Notes: a model not told the origin generated them from the letters alone. Shown: positions 4,700 to 51,324, numbered from the stretch's first letter. The stretch: DNA of 64,000 bases from Candidatus Hodarchaeota archaeon (GCA_048887225.1 JBHLJY010000001.1:100335-164334); one strand, 5' to 3'. Numbers and translations: made by a program.

Positions 4700-4734
4700 A
4701 TTTATTCTTAATTATTATAAATCAAGGTGAAATT

Positions 4735-5139: not shown

Positions 5140-5144
5140 AATAA

Positions 5145-6374: not shown

Positions 6375-6539
6375 GTATCTTCACTTCAATATTTTTAATT
6401 TTTATTATTATTATTATTTCAATTCTCATAATTAATTAATTTTTTAAATTTCCCTTAAAATATAAAAATCATAAAGAATGGAATATTTACTTAAACATCA
6501 AATTTCTAAGAAAATATTCCCTATTTTACATTTACTCAA

Positions 6540-7361: not shown

Positions 7362-8221
7362 TAAATCAATTTAAAATATTTGATTCACATATGCATTCTT
7401 ATGGCAAGTTCTTAAGTCCTAATAAAGATGTACTAGAATACATGGATAGATATAATGTTGAAAAAGCAATAATTACAACAGTGAATAGAGTAAAATTTTT
7501 TTCAGAAGAAAATAAAGACCAAATGAAAAGAATGTTTGAGAGTAAAAATATATCGGATATTTTAGATAATTTCAAAAAAGTTATTTTAAGAGGACAGCTC
7601 CCTCATCACGATGTAATAGATATCGCAAATAAAGCACCTGACAGAATTTTTAAACTTTTTTGGTTTAATCCTAATTTAAAACAAGAAGAGGAAGAATCAA
7701 ATTATCAAATTTTAGAAAATCATTTTAAACAAGGATTCTGTGGAGTAAAAATTCACCCAATGTTTCATATGTTTAAAATCCCTAGAGATATTTTAAAATT
7801 GGCCTCTTTTATTCAAGAATATAACAAAAATTTGATATTGTTCGTACATTCTCTACCTAAAGTCTCACTACATAGTGGGGTTTCAAGTAAAGATATAGCA
7901 AAATTAGCAATAAAGTTTCCTGATTTGCGAATAATTGTTGGGCATGCCGCATATTCAATGGAATATAGTATTGATGTAGCCTTTATTTTAAGAAAATTTA
8001 AGAATGTTTACTTTGAAACATCTGCTTCAGCATCATATGGGATATATAATATACTTAAAGCAGTTGGCCATAAACGCATATTATTCGGTTCTGACAGTCC
8101 AGTTGTATCTCCAGTTCAGCTTGAAATCGACAAAATATTGACATTGCCAATATCTAATATGGAAAAACAAGAGATATTATACAACAATGTAAGTAAGCTA
8201 CTTGAATTTTGTCGAAAATAA
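7361..8221 (+). CDS. metal-dependent amidohydrolase paralogue (probable non-ATG start)
   Basis: This is a paralogue of the 6540-7361 gene. The ORF track starts at ATG 7391, but the conserved KIFDSH of the HxH motif lies in frame upstream of it. An ATA at 7361 is preceded by GGTGA (7350-7354). The end coordinate is secure; the start is uncertain. Confidence 0.65.
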   Translation: MNQFKIFDSHMHSYGKFLSPNKDVLEYMDRYNVEKAIITTVNRVKFFSEENKDQMKRMFESKNISDILDNFKKVILRGQLPHHDVIDIANKAPDRIFKLFWFNPNLKQEEEESNYQILENHFKQGFCGVKIHPMFHMFKIPRDILKLASFIQEYNKNLILFVHSLPKVSLHSGVSSKDIAKLAIKFPDLRIIVGHAAYSMEYSIDVAFILRKFKNVYFETSASASYGIYNILKAVGHKRILFGSDSPVVSPVQLEIDKILTLPISNMEKQEILYNNVSKLLEFCRK

Positions 8222-8379
8222 TTTTATTATTAACCAATTAATTTTTATTGGTTTTTTAATTAATTTTTGCAATCATTATTATTGATTAAACTTCTTATTT
8301 TCATTTTAATAATAAAATAATTAAAGTATGTAAATCCTTTTTATTATTAAATAATTAAAAATTATTTTATGTTGATTAA

Positions 8380-8916
8380 GTGGAATTTAATAAATCGAAT
8401 CACAAGATATTAGAAATTTCTAAAGTAGACGACAAAATCATAAAAAAGTTAATCGATAATTTGAAATTGGATTTATCTGATAACTTTTTTATTTCCTTTG
8501 AAAGTCTAATAAAGCTAGGAAAAAAGGCTGAATCTGCATTAGAAACCGTTATTCATGAAATAGACGATCATCATCAATTTAAAAAAGAAATATTTAATCT
8601 ACTTCTGAATTTTATTAAAAACAACGAAATTGAAAATCCTTTATTACTTAAATTATATCATCCTGATTTTATTGTTCGAGCAAATGCTCTAGTGCAAATT
8701 GAAAAAAATGACGCTTTAAAAAATCTTAATTTCATTTTGCCATTAATATCAGATCCAGATGATTCTGTGCGTTGGGCAGTTATGAGATTACTAGATTCAC
8801 TTAATCAATCAGAAAATCAAAATCAAATTATTTTTAAAAAATTAAAAAAGCAAGTAGAGATTGAACCAAATCCAGTAATTCAAAAAAAAATTAAAAAGAT
8901 ATTAAAAATAGCATAA
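8380..8916 (+). CDS. hypothetical protein with HEAT/PBS-lyase-like repeat
   Basis: 178 aa with a GTG start. The helical repeat DPDDSVRWAVMRLLDSL resembles HEAT-like repeats. Confidence 0.45.
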   Translation: MEFNKSNHKILEISKVDDKIIKKLIDNLKLDLSDNFFISFESLIKLGKKAESALETVIHEIDDHHQFKKEIFNLLLNFIKNNEIENPLLLKLYHPDFIVRANALVQIEKNDALKNLNFILPLISDPDDSVRWAVMRLLDSLNQSENQNQIIFKKLKKQVEIEPNPVIQKKIKKILKIA

Positions 8917-8939
8917 GAGTTTTTAAGATATTCTTTTAT

Positions 8940-9962
8940 TTAGAAAAGATTTTCAACAAATCTAAATGCAAATCCCTTTAGAACTGGCTTTAAATCATTA
9001 ACCCAAGCAGCTCCATCTAACTCTTTTATTTTATGAATAGATCTGAATTCTGTTAACACATTTGAAATTAATTTTTTCAAGACATCTAAAGAGCTAGGTT
9101 TTCTCATTTGTTCAGTTAATCCTGAGTTTATGTAATCTGCTAGAGATTGAATTAAAATATCCTTGAATTCTTCATATTTATAAAATTTACCAAATCTAAA
9201 ATATGAATGTAAAAATTGTGAAACAGCGTTTTCAATTTCGATTGATCTAATTTTCTTTTTATCGAAACAATATGTTTTAATCAATCTTTCTAATAATGAT
9301 CCATTAAATTCAAAGACTATTTTCTTTTTAGGAGCAAAATATTGTGTCGGCGTTAAGTCCTTCATTTGTTTTTCTTCTTTTCTAGATGATAATACTCCCT
9401 CATAATCTTTTTTAATAATTTCTGACAAGCCAGCGCGTAGTGTCATTATTTTTGTATCTATTCTCTCATTTTCTTTAAATATTGTTGGAACCTTATTCTT
9501 ATGCTTTTCTAAGATTTGAGAAACATTAAAGTCCTTAGCTTCAAAAGTTGCGAAAAATATATCGTAAAGCGTACTAATCTCATATTCTTTAATATTATTT
9601 TTAAGCAATTTCCTCATATAATTATCATAATTAAGGAAAAAGAGAAATATACAATCGTCAACCGCTAAGTTAAAATTAGAATATTGTGCTCTTATAAGAT
9701 ATTTCTTGTATTCCAAGCGAATTTTTTGAGCTCGGATCCATTCGAATGCAAAATCAAGTATTTTTTTTTCTATTTTTCCTTTATAATGATTAAGAATACT
9801 GGCTATTTCATCTATAGATTCTCCAATTGATTGATTATTTAGGAATTTTGCAATAATCTTTAGTGGATCTAAAAAAGAAAATTGATTTTTAATTCTTTCA
9901 TAGTAATTATATAAACGTGCCTTATCAATCTTGTAAACTTGTTCAAATTTGATTTCTTCCAT
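8940..9962 (-). CDS. hypothetical protein (mostly helical, aromatic-rich)
   Basis: 340-aa ORF lying 27 nt downstream of the 9990-11030 ORF on the same strand. I recognised no motif. Confidence 0.5.
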   Translation of the reverse strand: MEEIKFEQVYKIDKARLYNYYERIKNQFSFLDPLKIIAKFLNNQSIGESIDEIASILNHYKGKIEKKILDFAFEWIRAQKIRLEYKKYLIRAQYSNFNLAVDDCIFLFFLNYDNYMRKLLKNNIKEYEISTLYDIFFATFEAKDFNVSQILEKHKNKVPTIFKENERIDTKIMTLRAGLSEIIKKDYEGVLSSRKEEKQMKDLTPTQYFAPKKKIVFEFNGSLLERLIKTYCFDKKKIRSIEIENAVSQFLHSYFRFGKFYKYEEFKDILIQSLADYINSGLTEQMRKPSSLDVLKKLISNVLTEFRSIHKIKELDGAAWVNDLKPVLKGFAFRFVENLF

Positions 9963-9989
9963 ATCTTCTTTCTTTACAATAATCTTAAA

Positions 9990-11030
9990 TTAATCTATAA
10001 TATCAAGGCATGACTTAATTTTATTTAGATCCTCATCTGAAGATGTACACCATTTTTCATTGGAGAGCCGTGGATTAAGATTATGAATTAATTCAATAGG
10101 ATTTTTATGCTCGTCTAAAATAAATCTTAAATTTCTTTTATAAAATGATAAATTATTATTATTATCAGTAAACTCATTTTCAGGAATTAAAATACCTCCA
10201 TAACTTTTTTTTACACTATTTTCGACTGAATATTCTTCTAAATAAATCATGTGTTTATCTTGTTGACTTAATTTTATCGTTCTAACATTAGGATAAACTG
10301 TAGTCATGTTAAATAATTTTAAAGTCTCGTTTATTAGATTTTCATAATAATCTGGAATAATTGCAGTAATATAATAAGAAGGAGTATAAGATAAAAGTTG
10401 TTTTCTTAAAAGATCATCTTTATCAAAAGTAAAAAGATGAGAAATTTTTGACCCATCATCATTTATTATTCTTTCTATTACTCCAACGCAATAGTACTTT
10501 TGTTGTTCTTCCCAGTACATTTTTCTTGTAGCACCTAGCGAATATTCAATTAGATTAAGTCCACGTTCCAATTCCTTTTTAATAAAATCTTTGAAATTAA
10601 AATCTCCTCCTAATAGACTCTCATTTACGATTCTACCTTGGATGATACTAGGGTGAATATATTCAACTAATTTAGTATGTAATAATTTGACATCTTCAGT
10701 ATGAGGAGAACCAATTAAAGCGGAGAGATGAGTAGGCAACCCATCTTCGGAAATAATTGTAGAATTAAGATTGAAGAAAGATTGAATAATATCAACATCC
10801 ATTAATATATCTTGGTGTAAAGATAAAGTAGATTCTATAAATTCAATTTTCCAATTGGCTCCAGAGGTGCTGGCTGAAGTTAAAAATAATGGCCCTAAAT
10901 ATTTATATGAAGTCATTTTTAAATTTGAAATTGCATCTTCGGATAATCCCTCTGAAAATTTAATATTGTCGAAAACTAAATTATTTTCGTCAGAAAAAAA
11001 CAATCCTAGGATAAATTCTGAGTTTTTCAT
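9990..11030 (-). CDS. hypothetical protein
   Basis: 346-aa ORF, first gene of a two-gene minus-strand unit. I recognised no motif. Confidence 0.5.
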   Translation of the reverse strand: MKNSEFILGLFFSDENNLVFDNIKFSEGLSEDAISNLKMTSYKYLGPLFLTSASTSGANWKIEFIESTLSLHQDILMDVDIIQSFFNLNSTIISEDGLPTHLSALIGSPHTEDVKLLHTKLVEYIHPSIIQGRIVNESLLGGDFNFKDFIKKELERGLNLIEYSLGATRKMYWEEQQKYYCVGVIERIINDDGSKISHLFTFDKDDLLRKQLLSYTPSYYITAIIPDYYENLINETLKLFNMTTVYPNVRTIKLSQQDKHMIYLEEYSVENSVKKSYGGILIPENEFTDNNNNLSFYKRNLRFILDEHKNPIELIHNLNPRLSNEKWCTSSDEDLNKIKSCLDIID

Positions 11031-12168: not shown

Positions 12169-12693
12169 ATGACTACTTATGACTATACGTTTAAGATCTT
12201 GTTGTTAGGCGATGCTTCAGTGGGAAAAACTTCGTTCACTAAGAGGTATTGCTATAATGTCTTCAATCCTAGCGAACGTTTGACGATAGGAGTCGATTTT
12301 CACGTAAAAACCATCGAGTTGCATAATAAAAAAATAAAATTACAAATTTGGGACGTTGGTGGAGAAGAGCGTTTTAGATTCCTGCTACCTACGTATTGCC
12401 TTGGCGCGAACGCGGCGTTTCTGTTGTATGATATTACGAGAGCTCCCACTTTAGATAATATACCAGAATGGACTTCTATAGTAAGGGAAAAGGGAGGCTC
12501 AATCCCTATTATGTTAGTTGGTTCAAAAGTCGATCTTGCTGAATCTCAGCGGGAAATTCCTACAGAACATGGTGTTCAAATTGCCGAGAAAAATAATTTT
12601 TCTGATTTTGTCGAGATTTCAGCAAAAGAAAATCTTAACGTTAACAATGCCTTTAAAGATCTAACTGAGTTTACTATTCAAAATATGAAATAA
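12169..12693 (+). CDS. Rab-like small GTPase (Ras superfamily)
   Basis: 174 aa. Motifs: G1 GDASVGKT, switch I TIGVDF, G3 KLQIWDVGGEERFRF, YDIT, G4 GSKVD, G5 SAK. There is no C-terminal Cys prenylation motif. Confidence 0.9.
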   Translation: MTTYDYTFKILLLGDASVGKTSFTKRYCYNVFNPSERLTIGVDFHVKTIELHNKKIKLQIWDVGGEERFRFLLPTYCLGANAAFLLYDITRAPTLDNIPEWTSIVREKGGSIPIMLVGSKVDLAESQREIPTEHGVQIAEKNNFSDFVEISAKENLNVNNAFKDLTEFTIQNMK

Positions 12694-12712: not shown

Positions 12713-13678
12713 ATGACCACACAAGACGAATTTATTCAAATATCGAATTTATTCAATTCATTAGGCATAATTGAAAAAGGTATTGAACGAGTTTATCATT
12801 ATTTGTTAAAAAATAAAAGAATTGATAATTTAAAAGAAGTCTGTGATCAGTATGATCTATCTTTAAAAAGAGGTTATAAAATCTGTTCTGTATTGAACGA
12901 TTTAGAATTAGTTCAAATTTACGATAGACCAATGAAAGTCAATTTAACAACTCCTCTTGTCTCGATTTGGCAAAAATTGATCAACAAGCGTATAGAAGCC
13001 TTGAAATATGAATTTGAGGACGAAAAGCAGCGATGTTCTGTTTATCTTGACGAATTTATTAAACAATATAATTTGAAATCCTTAGAGGCTCCACAAGAGC
13101 CTGTAGAATTGCTTCTTTTCGATATTAAAAAAATCGATGAGATGTATTATCCATTTTTAACCCGCAGTGAATGTAAAATTGCGGCAGGTATTAGATACGA
13201 AAATCCATTAATTTCTTTCATCAGGACCAATTCGATAGAAGAGATCGGAAAGAACTTAAAAAAGTCTATAATAGAAAGTATGAATAAAATTAAAGAAAAC
13301 CTCAGTAATATTAATATAAAAGTTGTTTTTAATAACGAGTTAATTATTGAATTGCTAACAAGTAAAGAATTTGCGGTTTTATACGAACAAATCGAACCTG
13401 TTGAATTTGAATTTAAAAGCCTTAAAGTTCATATAACAGAAGAACACTTTAGTAATTTTATTTTAACCGATGAAGAGTTAATCCAGCCAAGTTTCGATCC
13501 TACCAACAAGCTAATGGGTTCTTTTATATCTCGCAACGAAAATATTTATCACATTTTTTATGCTAAATTTAACGAGTTATTTGAAAAAGGAATTCCGATA
13601 AATAATTTTATCTCAATATCTGATATTTCAATTAATTCCCTATCGGAAAAACAAACATTTACCTTGTGTTTATTGTAA
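12713..13678 (+). CDS. TrmB-family winged-helix transcriptional regulator-like protein
   Basis: 321 aa, 19 nt after the GTPase stop. The N-terminus (LGIIEKGIERVYHYLLKNKRIDNLKEVCDQYDLSLKRGYKICSVLNDLELV) fits the TrmB wHTH. A coiled segment and a C-terminal domain follow. Confidence 0.6.
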   Translation: MTTQDEFIQISNLFNSLGIIEKGIERVYHYLLKNKRIDNLKEVCDQYDLSLKRGYKICSVLNDLELVQIYDRPMKVNLTTPLVSIWQKLINKRIEALKYEFEDEKQRCSVYLDEFIKQYNLKSLEAPQEPVELLLFDIKKIDEMYYPFLTRSECKIAAGIRYENPLISFIRTNSIEEIGKNLKKSIIESMNKIKENLSNINIKVVFNNELIIELLTSKEFAVLYEQIEPVEFEFKSLKVHITEEHFSNFILTDEELIQPSFDPTNKLMGSFISRNENIYHIFYAKFNELFEKGIPINNFISISDISINSLSEKQTFTLCLL

Positions 13679-19957: not shown

Positions 19958-21745
19958 TTATGCTGGAATTAAAACAATAAAATTAGAACCTTTCTTATAA
20001 TCATCTTTTATTCTATTGTCTATCCAGATTTTTCCATTATAACTGTCTATTAGTTGTTTTACAAGTGATAATCCAATTCCCATACCTCTGGTCGAGTTTT
20101 CATCGTTGCTTCTCCGCTGAAAAATTGCTACTTTTCTTTCATCATGTATTCCTACACCATTATCAATAAATTCAATTTTACAATATTTTTTATTCTCTAA
20201 TTGCATCTCAGAAATTCTTATTTGAATTTCTATTACTAGATTAATATTATGTCTTACTGAATTCATTAAGATATTTTCGAAAAGATCTAAAATAAGCTCG
20301 TTCGCTATTGCATAATGATCTTCTTCAATTGCCTCTACATTTATATGGAGGTTTCGATTTTGATAAATTTCGTCAATAAATACAATTGCATCCATTAAAT
20401 TTTTATTAATGTTAACTAACTCTAATGGCATTTCAGTTTCTTCGAGTTTAGACAATTTAATAACATTCGAAACAAGTTTTGAACCTCTGAAAACATTTTC
20501 TGTTATAGAACTTAAAAAATCCTTTTTGTCTTCGAACATTTCTGGCCTTTTTTTAGATAATTTATACAATTCTACGGAAGATTTTATTGATTGAAGTATG
20601 TTATTCATGTCATGAGCAATTAGTTCTTTATAAAAATTCGCACGGTTATATGCCTCTCGGTATCTTTTTTCTGATTCCTTAAATTTTTGTTCCGCTTTTT
20701 TTCGCTCAGTAATATCCCTTCCAATCGCTACAATTAGAAGATTACCATCAAAACTCCTAAAAGTTTTTCCAGTATATTCAAATGGAATAGTGCGACCTTC
20801 TTTTGTAATAAGAGACATTTCAACAGTTGTTTCTCCCGTGCTTAATGCCTTTTGTGTTGCTTCTGCTGCTTTCTTTAAATCTTCCTCGCTATAATAAGAA
20901 TCAGGAGCTTTCAGTGAAGCTATCTCATCATCAGTATAGCCAGCAACTTTGCGAAAAGCCTCATTCCACCTAATTGCTTTGCCAGTTTCGGGTTCAAAAA
21001 CAAAAATTGTATCGATTGATGTATTTAAAATATTATCAGTAAATTCTTTTACGTTTTTTAAAGCTTCCTCTGAGATTATTCGTTCTGTGATGTCAATTCC
21101 ATAAATATTTATATATTTTTCTTCTTGAATTGGTGTAATATTAAATGTATAAATTCGATCATTTAGTCCTATTTCTATAATTTTAGTAGAGTTTTTTGAA
21201 ATTACACTATTAACGCCTTCCATTAATAGATATGGAATTTTTTTACCTTCGGTTATATTAAATAATTTTTTACCAGCTTCATTGATATACAAGATTTTTT
21301 CACTATCAACTCTTAAGACGGGGTTTGGATTTTCAGAAGGAAACCTTGCAAGATCGGCAATTTTTTTTTCAGATTTTTTGCGCCCTGAGATATCTATAAC
21401 CATTGAACGTGATTCAAGTACATTTCCATTATTATCTATGATTGGATTTACTGATAAACTAATCCAGATAATATCCCCATTTCTATGTTTAAATTGTAAT
21501 TCTTCGTCTTTTATTTGCTTACTTTCTAAGAATCTTTTAAAAAGCCTCTTCGCTTTCTGTAAACCATTCTCTGTGTTAGCATATAAATCAAAAACTTTCA
21601 TATTTAAGAGTTCTTCTTTACTATAACCTAAAAGTCTTTCTGCTGCTTTATTACACCTTATAATTGATTTATCAGGGCTTATAGAGAAATAGGCATTTGG
21701 AGCTTCTTCATATAGATCTTGATATTTATTCTTCGATTCTTTCAA
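19958..21745 (-). CDS. PAS-domain sensor histidine kinase
   Basis: 595 aa with a TTG start. It has several PAS modules, the H-box ELIAHDMNNILQSI, and a HATPase_c region (NSVRHN...DNGVGI...GMGIGLSLV). Confidence 0.85.
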   Translation of the reverse strand: MKESKNKYQDLYEEAPNAYFSISPDKSIIRCNKAAERLLGYSKEELLNMKVFDLYANTENGLQKAKRLFKRFLESKQIKDEELQFKHRNGDIIWISLSVNPIIDNNGNVLESRSMVIDISGRKKSEKKIADLARFPSENPNPVLRVDSEKILYINEAGKKLFNITEGKKIPYLLMEGVNSVISKNSTKIIEIGLNDRIYTFNITPIQEEKYINIYGIDITERIISEEALKNVKEFTDNILNTSIDTIFVFEPETGKAIRWNEAFRKVAGYTDDEIASLKAPDSYYSEEDLKKAAEATQKALSTGETTVEMSLITKEGRTIPFEYTGKTFRSFDGNLLIVAIGRDITERKKAEQKFKESEKRYREAYNRANFYKELIAHDMNNILQSIKSSVELYKLSKKRPEMFEDKKDFLSSITENVFRGSKLVSNVIKLSKLEETEMPLELVNINKNLMDAIVFIDEIYQNRNLHINVEAIEEDHYAIANELILDLFENILMNSVRHNINLVIEIQIRISEMQLENKKYCKIEFIDNGVGIHDERKVAIFQRRSNDENSTRGMGIGLSLVKQLIDSYNGKIWIDNRIKDDYKKGSNFIVLIPA

Positions 21746-22152: not shown

Positions 22153-25100
22153 TTGAATGCTATAGAAAACCAGCTTAAGGAATTAAATAAAAAATTAATT
22201 GAATCAGAAGAGAAGTTTAGAGCTATTGCCGAACAATCAAATTTGGGTATTTGTATTCAGCAAGATGACAGGATTAAATATATAAATCAACGATTGGCAG
22301 ATTTAGTAGGATATACAATTGAAGAATTAAAAAGTTGGCAACCAAGAGAGTATGCAAAAGTAATTCATCCAGATGATAGGGAATATGCAATAGAACAAGG
22401 AAGAAAAAAACAGTTAGGGAGCAATAATGTTGATACTAATTATCAATTTCGTTTAATTAAAAGCACTGGTGAAATTATATGGGTTGATAATTATTCAAAT
22501 GCAATTATTTACAAAGATAGCCTAGCTAATTTAGCTACTATTATTGATATTACAGAAAAAAAAAAGGCAGAGATAGAGTTGAAAGAATCCGAAGAAAAAT
22601 TTAGATTAATTTCAGAAAAAGCAGATGACTTAATTTCAATTTTAGATAAAAAAATGAAATTTGAATATGTTAATGAACCAGTTCATTATCGATTGATGGG
22701 ATATTCAAGAGAAGATCTAATTGGAAAAACTGGGTTAGAACTTATACATCCAGAAGATCGTGCAAAAGTTTTACAAGAATTTAATAAAGCTTTTAAAACC
22801 GGTGAAGCAATCGCAGAGGCAAGAATTAGAAATAAAGATGGGCAATATATCTGGACAGAAACTAAAGGTAAATCTTTTATCGATAAAAATAATGAACCAA
22901 AAGCTCTATTAATCACAAGAATTATTACAGAGCGTAAAAATGATGAAAAAAAATTAAAAGAATCCGAAGAAAAATTTAAAGCTCTTTTTAAAGGAGGACC
23001 AGTTCCTACATATGCATGGCAAAAAGTAAGAAACGATTTTAAATTAATTGATTATAACAATGCCGCCGAAGAGTTTACCTATAGAAATGTGAGAAATTAT
23101 TTAGGATTAAAAGCTTCTGAGATGTATAAAGATCGACCAGATATCTTAAAAGATTTACATAGTTGCTTTGACACAAAATTCAATATTACTCGTGAGATGA
23201 AATATTACATCAACATTTTAAAAGAAGAAAAAGATCTTATAGTGAAATATAGTTTTATTCCTCCAGATCTGGTCTTAGTTCATACAGAAGATATAACTCG
23301 TAGAAAAATAGCCGAAGAAAATTTGAAAGAATCAGAAGAAAAATATCGATTAATTATTGAAAATGCTCATGAAGGAATCTGGGCTATTGATAAAGACGCC
23401 AATATTACTTTTGTTAATCCAAGAATGGCAGAAATATTGGGTTATACTACTGATGAAATGCTTGGAAAGCATTTATTTGATTTTATGGATGAAAATCTTA
23501 TAGAAATTGCTAAACAATATCTTGAACGCAGAAAAAGAGGTATAAAAGAACAACACGATTTTGAGTTTCTTCGAAAAAATGGAACAAAAATTACAACAAG
23601 CTTGAATACCTCGCCTATTATAGATAAAAACGGGAATTATGTTGGAGCTGTTGCGTTCATAACTGATATAACTGTTCGCAGGAAAGCAGAATATGAATTA
23701 AAGGAATCCGAGGAAAAATATCGACATTTATTTGAAAACTCACCATTCATTATAGTAATACTGGATTTAGAGGCTAATATTATAGATCTAAACTCAGCCG
23801 TCAATAATTTTCTCACTTCGCGTACGAAAAATGATTTAATCGGAAAAAATATAAGAGAAATCTTTTCTATACGTGAAGAGGAAAAACCAATAATCCCAAT
23901 AATACTAGATCAAATAAAAAGAACGGTTAATGGAGAAACTACAGAACCATTTGAATTTCCTTTAATAAGGTCAGATGAAAGTATTCAATGGATACGTTTC
24001 CAAAGTTCTTTAATAAATTTAGAAGATCAAAACTTAATACAATTTATAGGACAAGATATTACCAAGCGGAAGAAAGATAGAGATGAATTACGTTTACATA
24101 GTCAAATCATGAAAAATATGGCTGAGGGCGTGTGTCTTATTCGAGCCGACAATGAAACATTTGTCTATATAAATCCCAGATTTAAGAAGCTATTTGGTTA
24201 TGAACCTGATGAGTTGATAGGTAAGCATGTTTCAATTATAAATGCTCCAACTGCCATAAGTCCTATGGAAACAGCAAAAAAAATAACAGATATCGTGGAA
24301 AGAACAGGAGAGTGGCATGGGGAAGTTAAAAATATCAAGAAAGATGGTACAACATTATTTTGTCATGCTAATATCTCAACCTTTAAACATCCTGAGTATG
24401 GTAAAGTTTATGTCAACGTCATTATTGATATGACCGAAAGCAAGAAATCAGAACAAAAATTAGAAGAATCAGAAAAAAAATATCGCTATATTTTCGAGAA
24501 CTCACGCAATGCTATACTTTTAATTAATCCTGATGGAATAATTATTGATTGTAATCCAAGTACAGAAAGAATAACTGGATACAAGAAAACAGAACTAATA
24601 AACAGGAATTTTAAAGATCTCTCAGTAATTCGTAAAAAATACTTAAATTTGAGTGTTAAACTTTTTAGAAAACTTTTCGATGGAGAGATTGTACATCGTG
24701 TAGATGTAGAATTTATAAAAAAAGGTGGTAGTTTGATCTGGGTGAGTATACACGCATCTATAGTTAATATCAGCGAAGAGAAATTTATGATTGTGCTAAT
24801 TTATGATATCACAGAGCGTAAAAGAGCCGAATTTCTTGTTGAAGAAGAATTAAAAAAATTGAAAGAATTAGAGCAAATTCGAAAAAATCTAATTCTTAGA
24901 GTATCACACGAGCTTAAAACACCATTGATACCTGTATGTAGTGGAACTGAATTTCTTTTGTATAAATATGAAAAACAATTAGAAGAAGAAGTAAGCGATA
25001 TACTTAAAATGATAGAAAAAGGAGGCAAACGGTTGAAAATGCTGGTGAATAAATTACTTGATGTATCTCGATTAGAATATGATATGCTTTTATTAGAAAA

Positions 25101-25575
25101 ACAAACAAAGGATTTATGTGAAATAATAAAAGAATGTTGTAATGACATGATGCATTTAATTAAAGACAGGGGTCTTACACTTAATCTAGATATTCCTAAC
25201 AATTTTTATCTCGATATAGACGCTATGAGAGTTGAACAAGTAATTATAAATCTATTGTCAAACGCTATAAAAAATACTCCACCTAAAGGAAAAATTTCTA
25301 TTGGTTTGCGAGAAGAGAATAATTGGGCTACATTAGCTGTAACTGATACGGGAGTTGGTTTTACTAAGGAAGAAATGAGTAAAGTTTTCACTAGATTCGG
25401 TAAAATAGAAAGACTTGATAAAGGACTTGAATATATGGATATCCAAGGTTCAGGATTAGGACTATATCTCTCTAAAGAAATTGTTGATTTACATGGAGGT
25501 AAAATCTGGGCAGCGTCTGAAGGTCGAAATAAGGGTTCTACATTTTACTTTTCTCTGCCTATCATTAAAAAATAG
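22153..25575 (+). CDS. multi-PAS sensor histidine kinase
   Basis: 1140 aa with a TTG start. About seven PAS modules are joined by recurring LKESEEK(F/Y)R linkers. It has the H-box RVSHELKTPL and a HATPase_c region (LLSNAIKNTP...DTGVGF...GSGLGLYLSKEIV). Confidence 0.9.
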   Translation: MNAIENQLKELNKKLIESEEKFRAIAEQSNLGICIQQDDRIKYINQRLADLVGYTIEELKSWQPREYAKVIHPDDREYAIEQGRKKQLGSNNVDTNYQFRLIKSTGEIIWVDNYSNAIIYKDSLANLATIIDITEKKKAEIELKESEEKFRLISEKADDLISILDKKMKFEYVNEPVHYRLMGYSREDLIGKTGLELIHPEDRAKVLQEFNKAFKTGEAIAEARIRNKDGQYIWTETKGKSFIDKNNEPKALLITRIITERKNDEKKLKESEEKFKALFKGGPVPTYAWQKVRNDFKLIDYNNAAEEFTYRNVRNYLGLKASEMYKDRPDILKDLHSCFDTKFNITREMKYYINILKEEKDLIVKYSFIPPDLVLVHTEDITRRKIAEENLKESEEKYRLIIENAHEGIWAIDKDANITFVNPRMAEILGYTTDEMLGKHLFDFMDENLIEIAKQYLERRKRGIKEQHDFEFLRKNGTKITTSLNTSPIIDKNGNYVGAVAFITDITVRRKAEYELKESEEKYRHLFENSPFIIVILDLEANIIDLNSAVNNFLTSRTKNDLIGKNIREIFSIREEEKPIIPIILDQIKRTVNGETTEPFEFPLIRSDESIQWIRFQSSLINLEDQNLIQFIGQDITKRKKDRDELRLHSQIMKNMAEGVCLIRADNETFVYINPRFKKLFGYEPDELIGKHVSIINAPTAISPMETAKKITDIVERTGEWHGEVKNIKKDGTTLFCHANISTFKHPEYGKVYVNVIIDMTESKKSEQKLEESEKKYRYIFENSRNAILLINPDGIIIDCNPSTERITGYKKTELINRNFKDLSVIRKKYLNLSVKLFRKLFDGEIVHRVDVEFIKKGGSLIWVSIHASIVNISEEKFMIVLIYDITERKRAEFLVEEELKKLKELEQIRKNLILRVSHELKTPLIPVCSGTEFLLYKYEKQLEEEVSDILKMIEKGGKRLKMLVNKLLDVSRLEYDMLLLEKQTKDLCEIIKECCNDMMHLIKDRGLTLNLDIPNNFYLDIDAMRVEQVIINLLSNAIKNTPPKGKISIGLREENNWATLAVTDTGVGFTKEEMSKVFTRFGKIERLDKGLEYMDIQGSGLGLYLSKEIVDLHGGKIWAASEGRNKGSTFYFSLPIIKK

Positions 25576-37195: not shown

Positions 37196-38548
37196 CTATT
37201 TTAAATTATTTTGAATTTTTTGAATCCTAAGATCTAGTTTCTGTAATTGTTTATCATGTTTTCCATCATCATTTTCAGCAGATAAAATATTCTTAATTTG
37301 AAACAAATATTTTAGCGCAATTACATAGTCTTTTTTCTTTTCTGATTTGTTTGCTTGCTCCATGGCGAATTTTAATTCAACTTCTTTGTTGAGTTTAATA
37401 ATTTCTAAAATTTTAAACGAGATTTTACCCATCTCCACATCTAAATTGAATTCTCTTGCGTAATTAAGTGCCTTTTGATATTCAGTTAACGCCTCTTGAT
37501 ATGCAGCATTTTTTTCTGCGATTTCACCTTTCTTCACTGAAGAATGAATTTTTATATGAGCTTCTTCAAGACTCATATCATGACATTCAAAAATTATATC
37601 TTCCATATCTCTTATTTCCATGATTTTTTCAATTACATATTCCCTACTTTGTTTTTCTTGTCTTTCAGATTCTAATTCTTCCTTTTGATATTCAAAATTT
37701 TGCCAAATAATGATATTTTCTCTTATCATCTGATATATATTCCAAAGAATTTCTTCATTCGATATCACTCCTAATAGTTTTGAAGTTGTATCTATAAGTG
37801 GTGATATAAAAAAATATGTATCTTCTTTTAATAAATCCTTAGCACATTCATATATGGCTTTTTGAACTATAGAAAAATTTTCGATTTTATTTGGTGGTAT
37901 TTGAGTAGAGAGGGTGTGAGGATTAATCAGAGTTATTTCAAAAGTTTTTCCTACTAAGCTTCTAACTGGGTCTAGTATACTTAAATCACTTTTTTGCTCA
38001 AATTCCTTTAATTCATCTTGATAGTTATATTCACATATATTCGTGAAATTTAAGAGTAATTCTCTTAAATTATTTGAAGCTCTTCTATCAAGAATTAAAC
38101 AAATTCTGCATAATTCACCATTACACAAAAGAATATGAAAATTTTTATACTCAAACTCGTAAAATTTTTTATCTGGATTAATTTTATCTATTAACGTTAG
38201 TTCTTCGGACGAAAATGCTATATTTGCATGGATAAAACCAGATATTAGAGTAGCATCAATAGGTAAATCGCTTACAGCCATATTAAATGCGGGTACGCCT
38301 CCTTTAGTAAGAATTATTACATGTCTTATACTTGTTATATCTTGGTACTTCCTCCAAATATGTTTATATAATATTTTTTTTCTTTTTTGTTCTGAATCTT
38401 GTTCAATAGCTTCAATAATATCCACTAAAAAATTAGCGTCGCTAAATTTTTTCGATAAACACCTAAAGCAGTTTTCTGGATATCCCTCTTGACAAACCGA
38501 TTTGTCCACTCCGCAATCAAATCCCGAGATCAATTTAAAATATGTCAA
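37196..38548 (-). CDS. hypothetical protein: N-terminal Cys cluster, longin/roadblock-like alpha/beta domain (IDATLISGF), C-terminal TPR-like/coiled region
   Basis: 450 aa with a TTG start 7 nt after an AGGTGG SD. It has a CX6CX7CX2C cluster at residues 12-30. Residues about 75-185 share a domain with the C-terminus of the 48970-51324 protein. The C-terminus (AAYQEALTEYQKALNYA) is TPR-like. Confidence 0.6.
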   Translation of the reverse strand: MTYFKLISGFDCGVDKSVCQEGYPENCFRCLSKKFSDANFLVDIIEAIEQDSEQKRKKILYKHIWRKYQDITSIRHVIILTKGGVPAFNMAVSDLPIDATLISGFIHANIAFSSEELTLIDKINPDKKFYEFEYKNFHILLCNGELCRICLILDRRASNNLRELLLNFTNICEYNYQDELKEFEQKSDLSILDPVRSLVGKTFEITLINPHTLSTQIPPNKIENFSIVQKAIYECAKDLLKEDTYFFISPLIDTTSKLLGVISNEEILWNIYQMIRENIIIWQNFEYQKEELESERQEKQSREYVIEKIMEIRDMEDIIFECHDMSLEEAHIKIHSSVKKGEIAEKNAAYQEALTEYQKALNYAREFNLDVEMGKISFKILEIIKLNKEVELKFAMEQANKSEKKKDYVIALKYLFQIKNILSAENDDGKHDKQLQKLDLRIQKIQNNLK

Positions 38549-38812: not shown

Positions 38813-39328
38813 TTGAAAAAAAAATTACAATTTGGATTTATGTTGACAATTTTTTTAGTCTCAGTTGTAACAGCAATTATTTTGTTCTCAAGCGCAAATA
38901 CAAACATCACTAATAATTCTGCTATTGATGATGAAGCAAAATTAACAGTAGAAGCTGAAATCGACAATAGAAAGGAGCCAAACACGGCACTAACTGAACC
39001 ACAAGAGGGTGAAGTTGACGTTGTATTTAATCTTACAGTTGATGTTGGATGTAAGATAGGACTTGGAAATGATAAAAAAAAAATAAATCCATCCAAGCAA
39101 TGGCAATATCATTTAGAATTCATAAATATTCCCGGAATATACGATACAGAAGCTAAAGAGATTAAAGATTTGGACATAATTATTGAAGAGTTCGTTGAAA
39201 ATTGGCTTGAAAATAATGTTAAGAATAAGGGAAGAAAAAAGAAGATGCTTGAACGATATGTTATCATTGATTATGAGGTTATAATGGAATTGCTACCGGA
39301 GCCACCAGAGCCACCAGGACCCGCATAA
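38813..39328 (+). CDS. small membrane-anchored/secreted hypothetical protein
   Basis: 171 aa with a TTG start after a GAGGAGA SD. It has an N-terminal hydrophobic helix and a C-terminal PEPPEPPGP tail. Confidence 0.5.
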   Translation: MKKKLQFGFMLTIFLVSVVTAIILFSSANTNITNNSAIDDEAKLTVEAEIDNRKEPNTALTEPQEGEVDVVFNLTVDVGCKIGLGNDKKKINPSKQWQYHLEFINIPGIYDTEAKEIKDLDIIIEEFVENWLENNVKNKGRKKKMLERYVIIDYEVIMELLPEPPEPPGPA

Positions 39329-40975: not shown

Positions 40976-41560
40976 TCATAATGAGTAAGAAGTTGAAAAT
41001 TCAGGGTAAACTAACTTTTCTTCATGCATTTGCTGTAATGCTAACTCAAATACGAGTCTGAAAACATTATTTACATTATATCCCGTTTTAGAAGATGCTT
41101 TTATGTAATATTCTTTTTTTATTTCGCACATTTCTGCTATCTCAAAAACTACATCATCTTGAATCCCAGGATAATAATTTTCATTAATAAGATCGTGTTT
41201 TGTACCGACTAGAATTAAAGGAAGTCTATTATTCTTTGAACGAAACATGTTTGCCCAGTACGGTATGTTTTCTAAACTGTGTATACTCGTTAAATCAAAG
41301 AGTAATACGCCAACATCTGCCCCATTTACATGGCATTCGTGTAAAAAACGAAATCTTTCTTGCCCTCCCAAATCCCATATTTGCAGCTTACAATGTGTAG
41401 AGTTAAAACTCCATTCTTTTACAAAAAAATCTAAGCCTATTGTCATAATCATATTTTCTACGAATATTCCTTTGGTATATTTATTGAGCATTGTCGTTTT
41501 ACCGACTCCTCCGTTACCGCCCATTATTATTTTAAAAAGGTAATTTGTCATAGACGACAT
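40976..41560 (-). CDS. Rab-like small GTPase (Ras superfamily)
   Basis: 194 aa. Motifs: G1 GGNGGVGKTT, switch I TIGLDF, G3 KLQIWDLGGQERFRF, G4 GTKHD, G5 SSK. There is no C-terminal Cys lipidation motif. Confidence 0.9.
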   Translation of the reverse strand: MSSMTNYLFKIIMGGNGGVGKTTMLNKYTKGIFVENMIMTIGLDFFVKEWSFNSTHCKLQIWDLGGQERFRFLHECHVNGADVGVLLFDLTSIHSLENIPYWANMFRSKNNRLPLILVGTKHDLINENYYPGIQDDVVFEIAEMCEIKKEYYIKASSKTGYNVNNVFRLVFELALQQMHEEKLVYPEFSTSYSL

Positions 41561-44090: not shown

Positions 44091-45164
44091 CTAACGCCAC
44101 TCACAGCCACATTCGCCGCATCTCAATTTCTTGCCGTAAATTCGTGGATAAACCGAAATAAGGTTAGTTTTATCAAGGATTTCGTGAATAAATCTTCTAT
44201 TTGTATTACCACATTTAGGACAGCTTTTTCTCCCTACAGAGGATTCAATTGGTGTTTCTTTTTCCATTAGTAATGCTGATCCCGTTCCATATTCTTTATC
44301 GTAAAATGGGGTCGAGATTTTTGGTTTCTCCATTGATCTTTCTCTGATCATTCTTGCTACAATCCCTTTTGGAATTTCAGGAAATTTTTCAAAAGACCTT
44401 CTTTTCACTTTTACGCTTACAATTTCTTTTTCTTTCCGTTGGGTGATTTCAGGAGTCACTTCCACAATTCCTTTAAGGTTTAAATTTTCGATCTCTAATT
44501 CAGTAATTTTTTCGTTTAAGTCAATAATTAGTTTTTCTAATTTAGCAATGATAAATCTATCACTTTTTAGTTTTTCGCAATATTTATTAACTCGTTTGTT
44601 CTCCTCTTCTAAATTGGAGATTTTTTCGTTTAAACCAAGAATATGTTCTTCGAGATCAACAATATCTAACTGGTAATGCTTTTTGGCCTCATCACTTTTA
44701 GAAAGTAATTCTTTCTCCTTTTTAAGCTCTAATATTTCTTGGTTTATTGTTTCTTTGCTTTTAAGTAACTCTCTATTTTCCACTTGTAACTTACTAATTT
44801 GTTTTTCTAAATTAGCAATTTCTTCGTTTAACCAATCAATTTCTCCTTGTAGCTCTGTTTTTTCGTCCTTTATCTTCTCTATTGTATCGGATTTAATTCC
44901 TAAAACTATTAGATCATCAATATCTTTGCTTTTTTCTAATTCTGTAGCTAATTCATCGATTCTTTCTTTAAAAAGTTGTTTCTCGTGTTCTTTTTGAGCT
45001 AACTCTCGTTTTTGTGAAGCTATAATACTCTTAAAATTTAAAATCTCGTCGTTTTTTAATTTATTTATCACGTTGCGCAGTTTTTTAATAGTATTTTCCA
45101 ATTCAGAGCGAGTTTTTTGTTCGCTATCGTAAGAATCAAGCAAGTTTTCTATATCCTTAGTCAT
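44091..45164 (-). CDS. long coiled-coil protein with C-terminal zinc ribbon
   Basis: 357 aa. About 240 aa form heptad-rich E/K/L/N sequence (LEKQISKLQVENRELL, ISNLEEENKRV, ITELEIENLNLK). The C-terminus reads CPKCG-x28-CGECGC. Confidence 0.6.
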   Translation of the reverse strand: MTKDIENLLDSYDSEQKTRSELENTIKKLRNVINKLKNDEILNFKSIIASQKRELAQKEHEKQLFKERIDELATELEKSKDIDDLIVLGIKSDTIEKIKDEKTELQGEIDWLNEEIANLEKQISKLQVENRELLKSKETINQEILELKKEKELLSKSDEAKKHYQLDIVDLEEHILGLNEKISNLEEENKRVNKYCEKLKSDRFIIAKLEKLIIDLNEKITELEIENLNLKGIVEVTPEITQRKEKEIVSVKVKRRSFEKFPEIPKGIVARMIRERSMEKPKISTPFYDKEYGTGSALLMEKETPIESSVGRKSCPKCGNTNRRFIHEILDKTNLISVYPRIYGKKLRCGECGCEWR

Positions 45165-48969: not shown

Positions 48970-51324
48970 TTAGAAAGAGGTTGTAGTAGTTGGTTGAAAG
49001 ATTTTTTTTTTGATTAAATCTAAGATAATTTCAACATCACGCGGCTTAAACTTTTGTTCAGAGATAAGAAAAGTAGAATGGATATAATTTAAATTAAAAT
49101 CTTTCATGATTTGTTTTGCTTTATCTATCATTGCTCTTTCGCCTATAGTAAGTTTGACATCTATTTTCTCCACAACTTTTAATGGGGAAACAAACGATGT
49201 GTGGAGGTGTTCTTCAATTAACTCACGTATCCCTGCAAATTGACTTTTAATCCCCTTAAAACGCTTTATTTCTTCGCCAAATCTACTTTCAATACTATAC
49301 GATAAAGCTGTAACTGATCTTAACAATTCTTCTGAGGGACGTTCTTTCAAAATAAGTATTATTCTAAAATTTTTAAATTCTGACATTAAAACCTTTGATT
49401 CTTTATATTCTAACGAAATAGTCTGAGACTGATCGAAAGATTTCGTAAGTTCAATTCCAAAGGCACGAATAGCTTCCAAAAATCCGGATATCAATGTGGC
49501 ATCAATCTCTTTCCCAGCGATATATTGCTCATAAATATTTAATCCACTTTTCTTCTCTATTACCATAATATAATTTAAATTAATTATATCTCTAATTTTA
49601 TTGGTGAGATTTTCTCTACGTTCATCGCGTGTTCTCTTTAACATTTTAACACTTTTATAAGATATAATACTTCCTGCTGAAATTATACCACCAATTAAAA
49701 CAATAGCAAAAATTAACAGTGGATCAATACCTCCAGCTTTTTCTGTATCATCACCATTATCGTCTCCAATAATTAAAATGGAAACACCAGTAATCTGAAA
49801 CGATTGTAATTGAACACCTGCATCAGTACTATTCGTCCAAAACACGAAGCATTTCCAGGTTCCAGAAATAGCTGCAGAAGATAACGTTAAGTTAAAATCA
49901 AATTCAGATGTTGTTGTTCTTTCTTTTGTCTCTTGGTGGATTTTAATTGATCTACTATCGATTAAAATAAATGTATATTTACCTAATTTTGCTGGAGCCT
50001 TTACAACAAATCCTAAGTCATCACCTGCATTATAATCTGTTTTTGAAACGGTTAATGCAATTGGAAGTTCATTTGAATTAGCGGTAATTATCAATTGCCT
50101 TCCTCCGATTGTGGAATTATTACCTATAAATAATGTATTTCCATCATTTAAAATGGACGGTTCTGATGTTACATTTATAACTCCGTCAAATACACTAACA
50201 TGGAACCAATTATCGGGATAATCATAAAATAGTGAATAATTATATCCAAATCTATTAAAAGGTGGTTCAAACGTCCAAATATTATCTTGATTTTCCTTAA
50301 TATAAACCGTTCCATAACATGATAATGAGTTATTTAGTTTGATATAATAACTTAAATTAAGGAGCAATACATCAGATGTATTGTGTATAAATTGAATATT
50401 TAGACTAGAACTATTGGGAAAGTAATCTGTAAATGTTAAGGTTAAATTACCGGTTCCAAATATGATACCATCTTGGATAGAATAATCTGTTTCGTTTATT
50501 TCAGCCTTCAGATCAAGATTTGAGGGTTTAACAGTTCCGAGTGTTTGTGATTCTAATTTATAGAGAAACGTTTCATTGACTATTCCCGCTTCCCATCCAA
50601 TTCCGTTCCATCTCCAATTTAACAAATCTGGATATTTAGGAAAAATATCATTATAATACCAAAAAAAAGTTCCAGGATCGGGTGGAGGACCCGTCATTTC
50701 TGTACAATTAAATACTAACGAATAATACCCCGGAGAAAGAATTACTGGTGTAGAAAAAGTATGATCCCACCATAGTGGATTCGCTGATGTTACATTCAAA
50801 GAAGCATTAGCGTAAAGGATATTGTTTGGTCTTTGAGTTCCTGGATTATAACCATAGATTTGAAGATAACATTGAGCATCCGGAACTTTTGTTCTTAAAG
50901 CATATATTTTAACACCATATATTTTAGTAGAGGCCGTAAGATTAATCTGAACAGCATATGCTTTATCAGTAAATTTTATCTGTTTTGAGGAGATTGGGAT
51001 ATCCTCAATTACCTTAATCCCTCTTTGGAAAAAGATATTACTTATATCAAGGTGTAGTTTTGAAACATTCCATGTTGACCTTCCTAAATTTATATCAAGG
51101 AAATTGATGTTTTCCTCTGTTCCATTATTTTCCGCAATTTCAACTAAAGAAAAATTTTTAGTTATGGTTAAAGCTTCATTACTATATACGACTTGAGAGT
51201 TACTTGGATTTTTTTTTTCTATTGGAAACTCTGAATTTTTTGAATTAATCCCTGAAAAAACCAGTGCACTAAATAGAAAAATTAATCCTAAAAGAAAAAC
51301 AAAACCCAATCTCTTATTTGTCAT
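48970..51324 (-). CDS. single-pass surface glycoprotein candidate with cytosolic longin/roadblock-like domain (IDATLISGF)
   Basis: 784 aa. It has an N-terminal signal/anchor helix and a roughly 520-aa ectodomain with about 19 NxS/T sequons. A TM helix (IDPLLIFAIVLIGGIISAGSIISY) and a basic stop-transfer segment follow. The roughly 230-aa cytosolic region is homologous to residues 75-185 of the 37196-38548 protein. Confidence 0.7.
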   Translation of the reverse strand: MTNKRLGFVFLLGLIFLFSALVFSGINSKNSEFPIEKKNPSNSQVVYSNEALTITKNFSLVEIAENNGTEENINFLDINLGRSTWNVSKLHLDISNIFFQRGIKVIEDIPISSKQIKFTDKAYAVQINLTASTKIYGVKIYALRTKVPDAQCYLQIYGYNPGTQRPNNILYANASLNVTSANPLWWDHTFSTPVILSPGYYSLVFNCTEMTGPPPDPGTFFWYYNDIFPKYPDLLNWRWNGIGWEAGIVNETFLYKLESQTLGTVKPSNLDLKAEINETDYSIQDGIIFGTGNLTLTFTDYFPNSSSLNIQFIHNTSDVLLLNLSYYIKLNNSLSCYGTVYIKENQDNIWTFEPPFNRFGYNYSLFYDYPDNWFHVSVFDGVINVTSEPSILNDGNTLFIGNNSTIGGRQLIITANSNELPIALTVSKTDYNAGDDLGFVVKAPAKLGKYTFILIDSRSIKIHQETKERTTTSEFDFNLTLSSAAISGTWKCFVFWTNSTDAGVQLQSFQITGVSILIIGDDNGDDTEKAGGIDPLLIFAIVLIGGIISAGSIISYKSVKMLKRTRDERRENLTNKIRDIINLNYIMVIEKKSGLNIYEQYIAGKEIDATLISGFLEAIRAFGIELTKSFDQSQTISLEYKESKVLMSEFKNFRIILILKERPSEELLRSVTALSYSIESRFGEEIKRFKGIKSQFAGIRELIEEHLHTSFVSPLKVVEKIDVKLTIGERAMIDKAKQIMKDFNLNYIHSTFLISEQKFKPRDVEIILDLIKKKIFQPTTTTSF

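Follow-up and report, generated by a model that had tools for sequence, protein, structure and literature searches.

The 64,000-nucleotide stretch of a Candidatus Hodarchaeota genome analysed here (GCA_048887225.1, JBHLJY010000001.1:100335-164334; hereafter the window, with positions counted from its first letter) contains, at 48970-51324 on the minus strand, the gene for a 784-residue protein, called A below, that is predicted to be, in this Lokiarchaeia-like Asgard archaeon, a single-pass surface protein with N-glycosylation and to present a module of longin/roadblock fold on the cytosolic side of the membrane. The module is shared with a second, soluble protein of the window (B) and is reused, with very different ectodomains, as the putative cytosolic tail of other single-pass proteins; by its sequence it is an orphan family, the source-named members of which are all from Asgard genomes. 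This receptor-like use of a known fold is real and, in the texts searched, undescribed; its function we infer from the fold, from the architecture of the family and from comparison with known systems, and we tentatively propose that the module serves as a platform for a cytosolic partner.

Protein A and its predicted topology

Protein A can be divided as follows:

48970-51324, minus strand: protein A, 784 residues, single-pass surface glycoprotein with a predicted cytosolic longin/roadblock-fold module (open reading frame (ORF) and full-length AlphaFold2 (AF2) model)
51238-51318, minus strand: signal peptide or signal anchor at the N-terminus, residues 3-29 (hydropathy scan; AF2 helix 2-25, then a low-confidence linker)
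49741-51237, minus strand: all-beta ectodomain of several beta-sandwich domains, residues 30-528, with 20 NxS/T sequons (AF2)
49780-50064, minus strand: membrane-proximal macroglobulin (MG)-like beta-sandwich, residues ~421-515 (sub-threshold Pfam MG2)
49648-49740, minus strand: transmembrane helix, residues 529-559 (hydropathy, flank charge, AF2 helix 535-581)
49582-49647, minus strand: juxtamembrane helix, residues 560-581, which is the module's conserved N-terminal helix (AF2, conservation)
49255-49581, minus strand: longin/roadblock-fold domain, residues 582-690, beta-beta-alpha-beta-beta-beta-alpha (AF2, Foldseek)
49480-49506, minus strand: IDATLISGF, core motif of the family, with which the fold's central helix starts
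48985-49254, minus strand: small C-terminal alpha/beta domain, residues 691-780, winged-helix-like (AF2)

The initial annotation had described a protein of this length with a signal or anchor helix, a sequon-rich ectodomain, one transmembrane helix and a cytosolic last domain, and all of these points are borne out. A hydropathy scan finds two hydrophobic segments, residues 3-29 and 529-559. The second is preceded by an acidic flank (DDNGDDTE) and followed by a basic one (KMLKRTRDERR), in keeping with the positive-inside rule. The ectodomain holds 20 of the 21 NxS/T sequons, where 2000 composition-preserving shuffles yield 7.8 +/- 2.5 and none reaches 20; the cytosolic tail has one, against 1.1 expected by shuffling. 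The full-length AF2 model (57 sequences; predicted local distance difference test (pLDDT) 85.8) has only strands in the ectodomain (residues 51-512), then a disordered acidic linker, and residues 535-581 form one uninterrupted helix that leads from the membrane to the first strand of the module. Protein A thus has the N-terminal signal/anchor, the transmembrane helix, the positive-inside flanks and the external sequons of a single-pass (type I-like) N-glycosylated surface protein, and the flank charges, the sequon distribution and the continuous helix together support a cytosolic position for the module.

In Foldseek the ectodomain resembles arrays of complement C3/C5 MG domains, baseplate proteins of phages and galactose oxidase, all at low template modelling scores (TM-scores), so the match is generic. 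A sub-threshold Pfam MG2 trace covers residues 444-494 (E = 0.042), and MG2/MG4 traces also lie directly ahead of the transmembrane helix in the paralogs P0258 and P0214. The G+C content of the window is 30.6%, and the closest relatives are metagenome-assembled genomes (MAGs) labelled Promethearchaeota (Asgard, Lokiarchaeia type).

Predicted fold of the cytosolic tail

Modelled separately, the tail (225 residues, 560-784; AF2 with an alignment of 46 sequences; pLDDT 88, predicted TM-score (pTM) 0.81) consists of a helix (tail residues 2-22), a beta-beta-alpha-beta-beta-beta-alpha unit (24-128) and a small alpha/beta domain (140-219). Its elements up to residue 128 (H2-22, E24-31, E37-42, H50-63, E75-81, E84-91, E94-100, H106-128) are reproduced by the full-length model, and the pLDDT of the fold domain (582-690) is mostly above 90. 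The tail model has the topology of the longin/roadblock superfamily (GTPase "platform" domains, Levine et al. 2013), that is, a five-stranded sheet in the beta-beta-alpha-beta-beta-beta-alpha order with an extra terminal helix. When it was compared with the PDB by Foldseek, the best 50 matches were all longin or roadblock proteins (E 2.9e-4 to 3.9e-3; target TM-score at most 0.67), and PAS, GAF and V4R proteins were absent from these 50. The matches comprise adaptor (AP) sigma subunits, SEDL/TRAPPC2, Tca17, Ykt6, Sec22b, VAMP7 and SRX, and further Fuzzy-Inturned, MON1-CCZ1, DENND10, GATOR1 chains, Rag C-terminal domains, LAMTOR subunits and MglB. The predicted structure and its matches thus support the longin/roadblock fold that the initial annotation had read from the pattern of strands and helices.

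Sequence comparisons gave little in addition. The module has no Pfam match in A or B, with no Robl_LC7 at E <= 1 and no Longin or Synaptobrevin, and profiles of the module found nothing meaningful among all PDB sequences. When 28 module sequences were run singly against Pfam, traces only were obtained, with MAPKK1_Int (LAMTOR3) at E = 0.068 in one and Robl_LC7 at E = 0.25 in one of the 28; seven long paralogs likewise gave sub-threshold traces only.

The initial annotation was right about the core fold, but the module is larger than first delimited: a conserved N-terminal helix and a winged-helix-like C-terminal domain belong to it in both A and B. The juxtamembrane helix is also conserved in the family of soluble B proteins, which have no transmembrane helix, and is therefore part of the domain; its D579 is kept in 96% of members. 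The C-terminal domain (elements H-H-E-H-H-H-E, pLDDT above 90 in AF2) may be called winged-helix-like from its order of helices and strands. Its sole outside trace is to the APAF-1-like winged-helix domain (WHD; E = 0.051, two of the 28 members).

A soluble paralog carries the same module

Protein B is organised as follows:

37196-38548, minus strand: protein B, 450 residues, TTG start, soluble paralog with the same module and no hydrophobic segment
38459-38515, minus strand: C-x6-C-x7-C-x2-C motif, residues 12-30, invariant cysteines
37706-38356, minus strand: helix, longin/roadblock-fold domain and small C-terminal domain, residues ~65-281, homologous to the tail of A
38234-38260, minus strand: IDATLISGF, in synonymous codons that differ from those of A
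37199-37651, minus strand: helical TPR-like C-terminal region, residues ~300-450 (sub-threshold TPR_2)

A module common to the two proteins had been proposed from a shared 9-mer and withstands comparison over the whole module. BLASTP aligns A 576-742 with B 67-242 (26% identity over 177 residues, E = 5e-10), and the homology extends over about 200 residues of the tail of A and residues ~65-280 of B. The exact 9-mer IDATLISGF (49480-49506 in A, 38234-38260 in B) differs in five of its nine codons, by six nucleotides, all synonymous, in agreement with the earlier view of conservation at the protein level rather than a recent DNA duplication; the module is an ancient family. Searched in six frames with the module profile, the window matches in the A and B ORFs only, with no third copy. 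The 72 homologs of B are about 450 residues long, with a mean column identity of 67%, and the named ones are all Asgard and annotated "hypothetical protein". Compared with the module profile, 70 of 70 match, 67 of them over nearly its full length (profile positions 1-198). The one doubt that could be raised about the relationship is that 26% is a low pairwise identity, and nothing beyond this speaks for a chance or low-complexity match without a real shared domain. Such a match is refuted by the E-value, by the profile matches of the B homologs, by the 2,537 clusters of the family (see below) and by the confident predicted structure, and we give it practically no credence.

The soluble form, made of the module, the Cys4 motif and a helical C-terminus, occurs once per genome. 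C12, C19, C27 and C30 of B are invariant in 26 sequences and probably bind zinc. The C-terminus of B has a TPR_2 trace (E = 0.41, sub-threshold). Helical TPR/MIT-like repeats follow the module in B and in P0244, P0250 and P0258, for example ...KNAAYQEALTEYQKALNYAREF..., all below the Pfam thresholds (MIT in P0258, E = 0.017). Between B and a ferredoxin-like gene lies a 171-residue ORF (38813-39328, plus strand) that lacks a Pfam match and has a hydrophobic N-terminal segment; an antisense ORF of 107 residues that overlaps it is probably spurious.

An Asgard family of module-bearing surface proteins

Searching exhaustively with HMMER and the trimmed alignment of the module yields, at 50% identity, 2,537 clusters at E <= 1e-3, 816 at E <= 1e-10 and 247 at E <= 1e-30. 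Where members are named, their source is a Promethearchaeota/Lokiarchaeota or Helarchaeota MAG. The tail of A itself has 47 homologs, the named ones all from Asgard genomes, annotated "hypothetical protein" and devoid of any precomputed Pfam domain, and Asgard MAGs, under the labels Promethearchaeota, Hermod-, Hod-, Thor- or Sigynarchaeum, are the source of all 52 related loci collected around A-type genes. Among the best 150 of the 2,537 the module is nearly always C-terminal and begins 15-20 residues past a hydrophobic helix. In those 150, counting proteins with an initial Met, the part ahead of the module is between about 60 (P0200) and roughly 1,450 residues long and is rich in sequons if long; some still shorter entries are fragments, such as P0221, which clusters with a 1,333-residue protein. 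The ectodomains measure roughly 100 to about 1,450 residues. The order ectodomain, transmembrane helix, module, first noted for A, is therefore a recurrent one, found only in Asgard archaea as far as the members are named. None of the 258 family proteins retrieved has a GTPase domain.

Proteins of the A family proper (about 750-800 residues) are homologous end to end, and the module is their most conserved part: mean identity to A is 53% in the longin/roadblock-fold domain, 38% in the C-terminal domain and about 31% in the ectodomain. Positions conserved family-wide are, in A numbering, D579, G594, D608, L611, S613, G614, F615, A618, F622, E625, Y640, R654, S664, F689, G691, P714 and F748, of which IDATLISGF covers the most conserved (D608, L611, S613, G614 and F615). 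On the central helix G614, F615, A618 and F622 are near-invariant, and the small-xxx-small pattern of G614 and A618 would suit helix-helix packing.

Tandem pairs and gene neighbourhoods

The set of 52 related loci recovers A-type genes only (search pattern SQTI[KS]LE[YF][KQH]). In 23 of them A-type genes stand in tandem, two or three on one strand and in a fixed order (loci L006-L029; for example L006 5910-8186 and 8390-10663). Copies at position 1 are 64-74% identical across genomes and only 36-42% identical to their own neighbours; the duplication is therefore an old one that took place before those genomes diverged, and the order has been kept. Both tandem paralogs keep all conserved residues, and an asymmetry of a catalytic and a non-catalytic copy was not found between them.

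Protein A of the window has no tandem partner and is about 38% identical to all tandem copies, being nearest to the position-2 type. Its neighbours are SDR, FMN reductase and PCMT genes, the last two in the same synteny as in the tandem loci. A 357-residue protein of the window (44091-45164, minus strand) is homologous (E = 1.3e-21) to a 155-residue coiled-coil protein syntenic with A-type genes in 24 loci, so that part of the ancestral neighbourhood has been kept about 4 kb from A. A gelsolin-repeat gene (Pfam Gelsolin 22.9 bits, cut-off 21) keeps its place some 1.5 kb downstream of the paired A-type genes (L006 12137-12985, minus strand, and 19 other loci); it has no homolog anywhere in the window. 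The neighbourhood of B is not conserved at the loci of its homologs (L001, L002 and L060), and the 1,343-residue neighbour of the B homolog in L002 lacks the module. Contigs with exact A, or with its closest full-length homolog P0156, are too short for their neighbourhoods to be read.

A candidate platform for small GTPases

Longin/roadblock domains are general platforms for small GTPases and tend to act as heterodimers (PMC10933270, PMC3747258). By analogy, we propose, at a little under an even chance, that the module is a dimeric platform at the inner membrane that docks a cytosolic partner, most likely a small GTPase, and so couples the surface protein to GTPase processes. The module would dimerise, as longin/roadblock domains do as a rule, either with itself or with the tandem paralog or B. 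The dimer would present a conserved face at the inner membrane surface, for which G614, F615, A618 and F622 of the central helix, together with G594 and R654, are candidate residues. This face would dock the partner, most likely one of the many Asgard small GTPases, the module acting as anchor, guanine nucleotide exchange factor (GEF) or GTPase-activating protein (GAP), and where the surface protein lies, or the state it is in, would thereby be coupled to GTPase-controlled processes. The fold, the A-B homology, the architecture of the family and the conservation of the module above all other parts are consistent with this proposal; the old tandem pair with its fixed order fits the heterodimer habit of the fold, and some paralogs have operon-like GTPase neighbours.

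These neighbours are found at four independent places. In L024 an Arf-family gene starts 7 bp past the stop of the A-type gene on the same strand, and in L054 a Ras-family gene lies 131 bp upstream, again on the same strand. L059 (10001-16160) and L055 (2149-8414) share a conserved co-directional cluster of three genes, encoding a module-bearing membrane protein of about 1,450 residues, a Gtr1/RagA-like GTPase and a fusion of 355/358 residues, 85% identical between the loci, in which an unannotated N-domain of about 180 residues precedes a Ras-family GTPase; the N-domain reads ...IIAGIVFSKYDEIAGPDAFYWVP... and has a GP motif that, by sequence only, resembles GAP-type longins. In L061 a convergent gene for a 251-residue Arf/Ras/Roc GTPase lies 63 bp from the module gene. 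This locus (3023-10820) encodes a 1,333-residue module-bearing membrane protein with two leucine-rich repeat (LRR) proteins upstream on the same strand, so that the LRR and Roc parts combined in ROCO proteins are here separate genes.

The initial annotation had also drawn on two Rab-like GTPases of the window. Both genes are there (12169-12693 and 40976-41560; Ras-family, Pfam E = 4.6e-46 and 1.6e-35), but they do not count as evidence, being present at ordinary density and unlinked to A or B. They lie 36 kb and 7.4 kb from A, and 24.5 kb and 2.4 kb from B, respectively. The loci plus the window hold 11 Ras-superfamily ORFs in 873 kb (12 with a RagA-like ORF missed by the iterative search), and two in 64 kb is not significantly above the roughly one per 75 kb of the related loci (Poisson P about 0.2). 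When proximity is taken as a GTPase within four genes (PMC4316618), A has none within 7 kb, and B has 40976-41560 three genes away. The loci of B homologs lack a nearby GTPase, so this proximity is not conserved and is best read as coincidence. A 321-residue ORF without Pfam match (12713-13678, plus strand) starts 20 bp past the GTPase gene 12169-12693 and is a candidate operon partner of it.

Several observations weigh against a role with GTPases. No sequence-profile link to characterised GTPase regulators was found in the Pfam, PDB and NPRL2 comparisons, and the family proteins retrieved have no GTPase domain of their own. In the window no GTPase gene adjoins A or B or forms an operon with either; within 8-10 kb there is none at the B homolog loci L001, L002 and L060, nor at most loci homologous to A and B. 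The adjacencies number four to five in about 60 loci (four independent), against 1.4-2.2 expected in about 57 loci if GTPases make up 1.3-2% of genes, which is at most a weak enrichment of about twice chance, and the GTPases concerned are of different subfamilies (Arf, Ras, RagA-like). The co-occurrence implied by the initial annotation is thus nearly absent at the level of the gene neighbourhood. Finally, some longin/roadblock proteins do not act on GTPases at all, as with SNARE longins and dynein LC7 (PMC10933270). However, in the Asgard archaeon MK-D1 GTPase genes and roadblock/longin genes generally do not share operons (PMC10933270), and among 749 MglB homologs from bacteria and archaea 328 are "orphans" (PMC4316618), so that missing linkage neither refutes nor supports a GTPase role.

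The inconsistent GTPase neighbourhood would be expected if the module were a GTPase-independent scaffold, serving in dimerisation or as an adaptor, that clusters the abundant glycoproteins of the surface or ties them to cytoskeletal, ESCRT or coat-like proteins, in the manner of dynein LC7/roadblock, the regulatory longins of SNAREs or adaptor sigma subunits. We consider this main rival unlikely but worth serious attention. The best Foldseek matches are indeed adaptor sigma, SEDL and SNARE longins, not MglB or LAMTOR; the ectodomains consist of generic arrays of beta-sandwiches such as surface coats or adhesins typically have, and no ligand-binding domain can be recognised in them; and the TPR/MIT-like C-terminal extensions of B and the long paralogs look adaptor-like, although sub-threshold. 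The gelsolin-repeat gene syntenic with the tandem pair in 20 loci points the same way, but this synteny is confined to closely related genomes and absent from the window. Also, several paralogs do have operon-like GTPase neighbours, and the conservation of the cytosolic face above the ectodomain suggests a specific conserved partner, the identity of which it leaves open.

Signals might instead run outwards. The rigid continuous helix between membrane and module would allow conformational coupling in either direction, and Asgard longins fused to two-component signalling domains are reported (bioRxiv 10.1101/2020.10.19.343400); the module could then be a cytosolic sensor or regulatory domain that binds a small molecule or a signalling protein and controls the ectodomain or its turnover from the inside, without GTPases. 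This is improbable: the ligand-binding relatives that one might look for (PAS, GAF, V4R) are missing from the top 50 fold matches, and two-component genes are not consistently adjacent across the 52 related loci. The window itself encodes two divergently oriented histidine kinases with many PAS domains (19958-21745, minus strand, and 22153-25575, plus strand), the larger of 1,140 residues with at least five PAS units.

Resemblance to GAP-type longins

Within the GTPase-platform proposal, a more specific case would make the module a membrane-anchored catalytic longin of the GAP type. GAP longins (FLCN, NPRL2, SMCR8, C9orf72) have a GP motif just ahead of beta2 and a neighbouring arginine finger, and some Asgard longins share their features (PMC12290439). 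In human NPRL2, G20-P21 precede beta2 and R78 stands directly before a strand (sequence confirmed in PDB 6ces_N). In the module, G594 (93% of members) is in the beta1-beta2 loop and R654 (86%) at the beta4-beta5 turn, directly before beta5, a place topologically like that of NPRL2 R78 by strand order, without superposition. From the topology, the two loops would be neighbours in a 2-1-5-4-3 sheet, and the glycine and arginine could then form a catalytic pocket as in NPRL2, FLCN or SMCR8. The B family has G-x-P at the beta1-beta2 loop, GATOR1 chains (presumably NPRL3) are at ranks 2, 11 and 37 of the Foldseek list with long alignments, in NPRL2/3, too, a longin is joined to a small C-terminal domain, and Asgards reportedly have abundant NPRL2-like longins (bioRxiv 10.1101/2020.10.19.343400). 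We nevertheless think that a catalytic module of this kind is a long shot. A reads S-G-L-N, with no proline, and proline at +2 is found in 29% of members; the equivalence of positions comes from strand order, not superposition; and both tandem paralogs keep the glycine and the arginine, unlike the asymmetric catalytic/non-catalytic pairs of eukaryotes. Membership in the NPRL2/FLCN family was considered and rejected: hhalign of the module profile against NPRL2 (a single sequence, or an alignment of homologs that is vertebrate only and so of limited sensitivity) gives probabilities of 0.15-0.17%, and Pfam NPR2 and Folliculin have no match in A, B or the 28 module sequences. The resemblance of the glycine and arginine is retained as a lead only.

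Significance

Small GTPases and roadblock/longin proteins are both numerous in Asgard archaea. Pairing regulators with their GTPases from genome layout is difficult (PMC10933270). The family described here hard-wires a longin/roadblock fold to the inner end of surface glycoproteins (2,537 clusters at 50% identity) and offers expressible candidates: the 225-residue tail, the soluble paralog B, the tandem pairs and the few loci at which an Arf-, Rab- or Rag-like gene adjoins. These candidates bear on the question of whether signalling or trafficking from surface proteins to GTPase platforms of the eukaryotic type predates eukaryotes, in their archaeal relatives.

It is tempting to speculate further that the family constitutes an Asgard-specific form of outside-in signalling, in which dozens of single-pass surface glycoproteins per lineage, differing in their ectodomains, would share one membrane-tethered platform, pair with the tandem paralog or B and recruit or switch Arf-, Rab- or Rag-like GTPases. 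So complete a scheme is rather doubtful; if true, it would mean that receptor-to-GEF/GAP-to-small-GTPase signalling and membrane-anchored platforms like Ragulator/GATOR had a forerunner among prokaryotes. Should the module prove unrelated to GTPases, it would probably still have a major part in organising the surface of Asgard cells, and it is annotated merely as "hypothetical protein". One more Asgard longin/roadblock family would not surprise a specialist; a common tail of thousands of surface glycoproteins probably would.

Comparison with known systems

The longin/roadblock superfamily is known to be expanded in these same organisms, with 130 Roadblock/LC7-superfamily clusters of orthologous genes (asCOGs) in Asgards (bioRxiv 10.1101/2020.10.19.343400) and fusions to GTPases (Liu et al., asCOGs; Tran et al. 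2024). The published descriptions concern soluble proteins, GTPase fusions and two-component fusions. No description of the ectodomain-transmembrane-longin/roadblock architecture was found in the main texts searched, the supplementary tables of which lay outside the scope, so that the proteins may be catalogued among the asCOGs. Within that scope the architecture is, as initially proposed, uncharacterised, and its named members are listed as "hypothetical protein".

A longin domain held in the cytosol by a membrane protein or complex is also seen in the longin SNAREs (Sec22b, VAMP7, Ykt6) and in SRX of SR-alpha with SR-beta; Sec22b (1ifq) has the highest target TM-score of the Foldseek matches (0.67) and SRX (1nrj) is at rank 10. 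In the SNAREs, however, the longin is N-terminal, followed by the SNARE motif and a C-terminal tail anchor, with no ectodomain, whereas A has the order signal, ectodomain, transmembrane helix, module; SRX is soluble and binds a transmembrane GTPase. NPRL2/NPRL3 of GATOR1, FLCN, SMCR8 and the Asgard NPRL2-like longins resemble the module in joining a longin to a small C-terminal domain, the NPRL2 type perhaps also in the placement of a conserved glycine before beta2 and arginine before beta5, and GATOR1 is among the top fold matches. The module differs from the NPRL2 type in its lack of profile similarity (hhalign probability below 1%), the missing proline in A, its membrane anchor and the arginine kept in both tandem paralogs.

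MglB, the bacterial roadblock GAP of the Ras-like GTPase MglA (Robl_LC7, PF03259), is of the same fold class (1j3w, 3t1s and 6hjm, Foldseek E about 2e-3 to 4e-3). It shares the helix-beta-beta-helix-beta-beta-beta-helix order, the N-terminal helix being kept even in soluble B, and a dimeric platform is expected for MglB and module alike. The module differs in having no Robl_LC7 profile match (one of 28 sequences at E = 0.25), in its link to a transmembrane helix and a large ectodomain, in the extra winged-helix-like domain and in the want of a coupled GTPase gene at most loci, whereas 390 of 449 MglA genes are within four genes of mglB (PMC4316618). Ragulator/LAMTOR with the Rag C-terminal domains likewise forms a membrane-held platform of roadblock folds on which small GTPases dock, and its components are among the Foldseek matches (with the MAPKK1_Int trace at E = 0.068); it is anchored by lipidated LAMTOR1, not by a transmembrane helix and ectodomain, has no extracellular part and shows no detectable sequence homology to the module.

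For the proposed logic, in which a membrane sensor acts through a roadblock protein on a small GTPase, the closest prokaryotic precedent is the actinobacterial conservon, an operon of CvnA (a membrane histidine kinase), CvnB (roadblock/MglB-like), CvnC (DUF742) and CvnD (a GTPase) (PMC4316618). The conservon distributes over four proteins of a conserved operon what the Asgard-only module family combines, as sensor-like ectodomain and fold, in one polypeptide; A has no kinase domain, and no such operon is present in the 52 related loci. By analogy, then, the module would work most like the membrane-held platforms Ragulator and MglB and, in its logic, like the conservon, while it departs from each of them in sequence and in operon structure.

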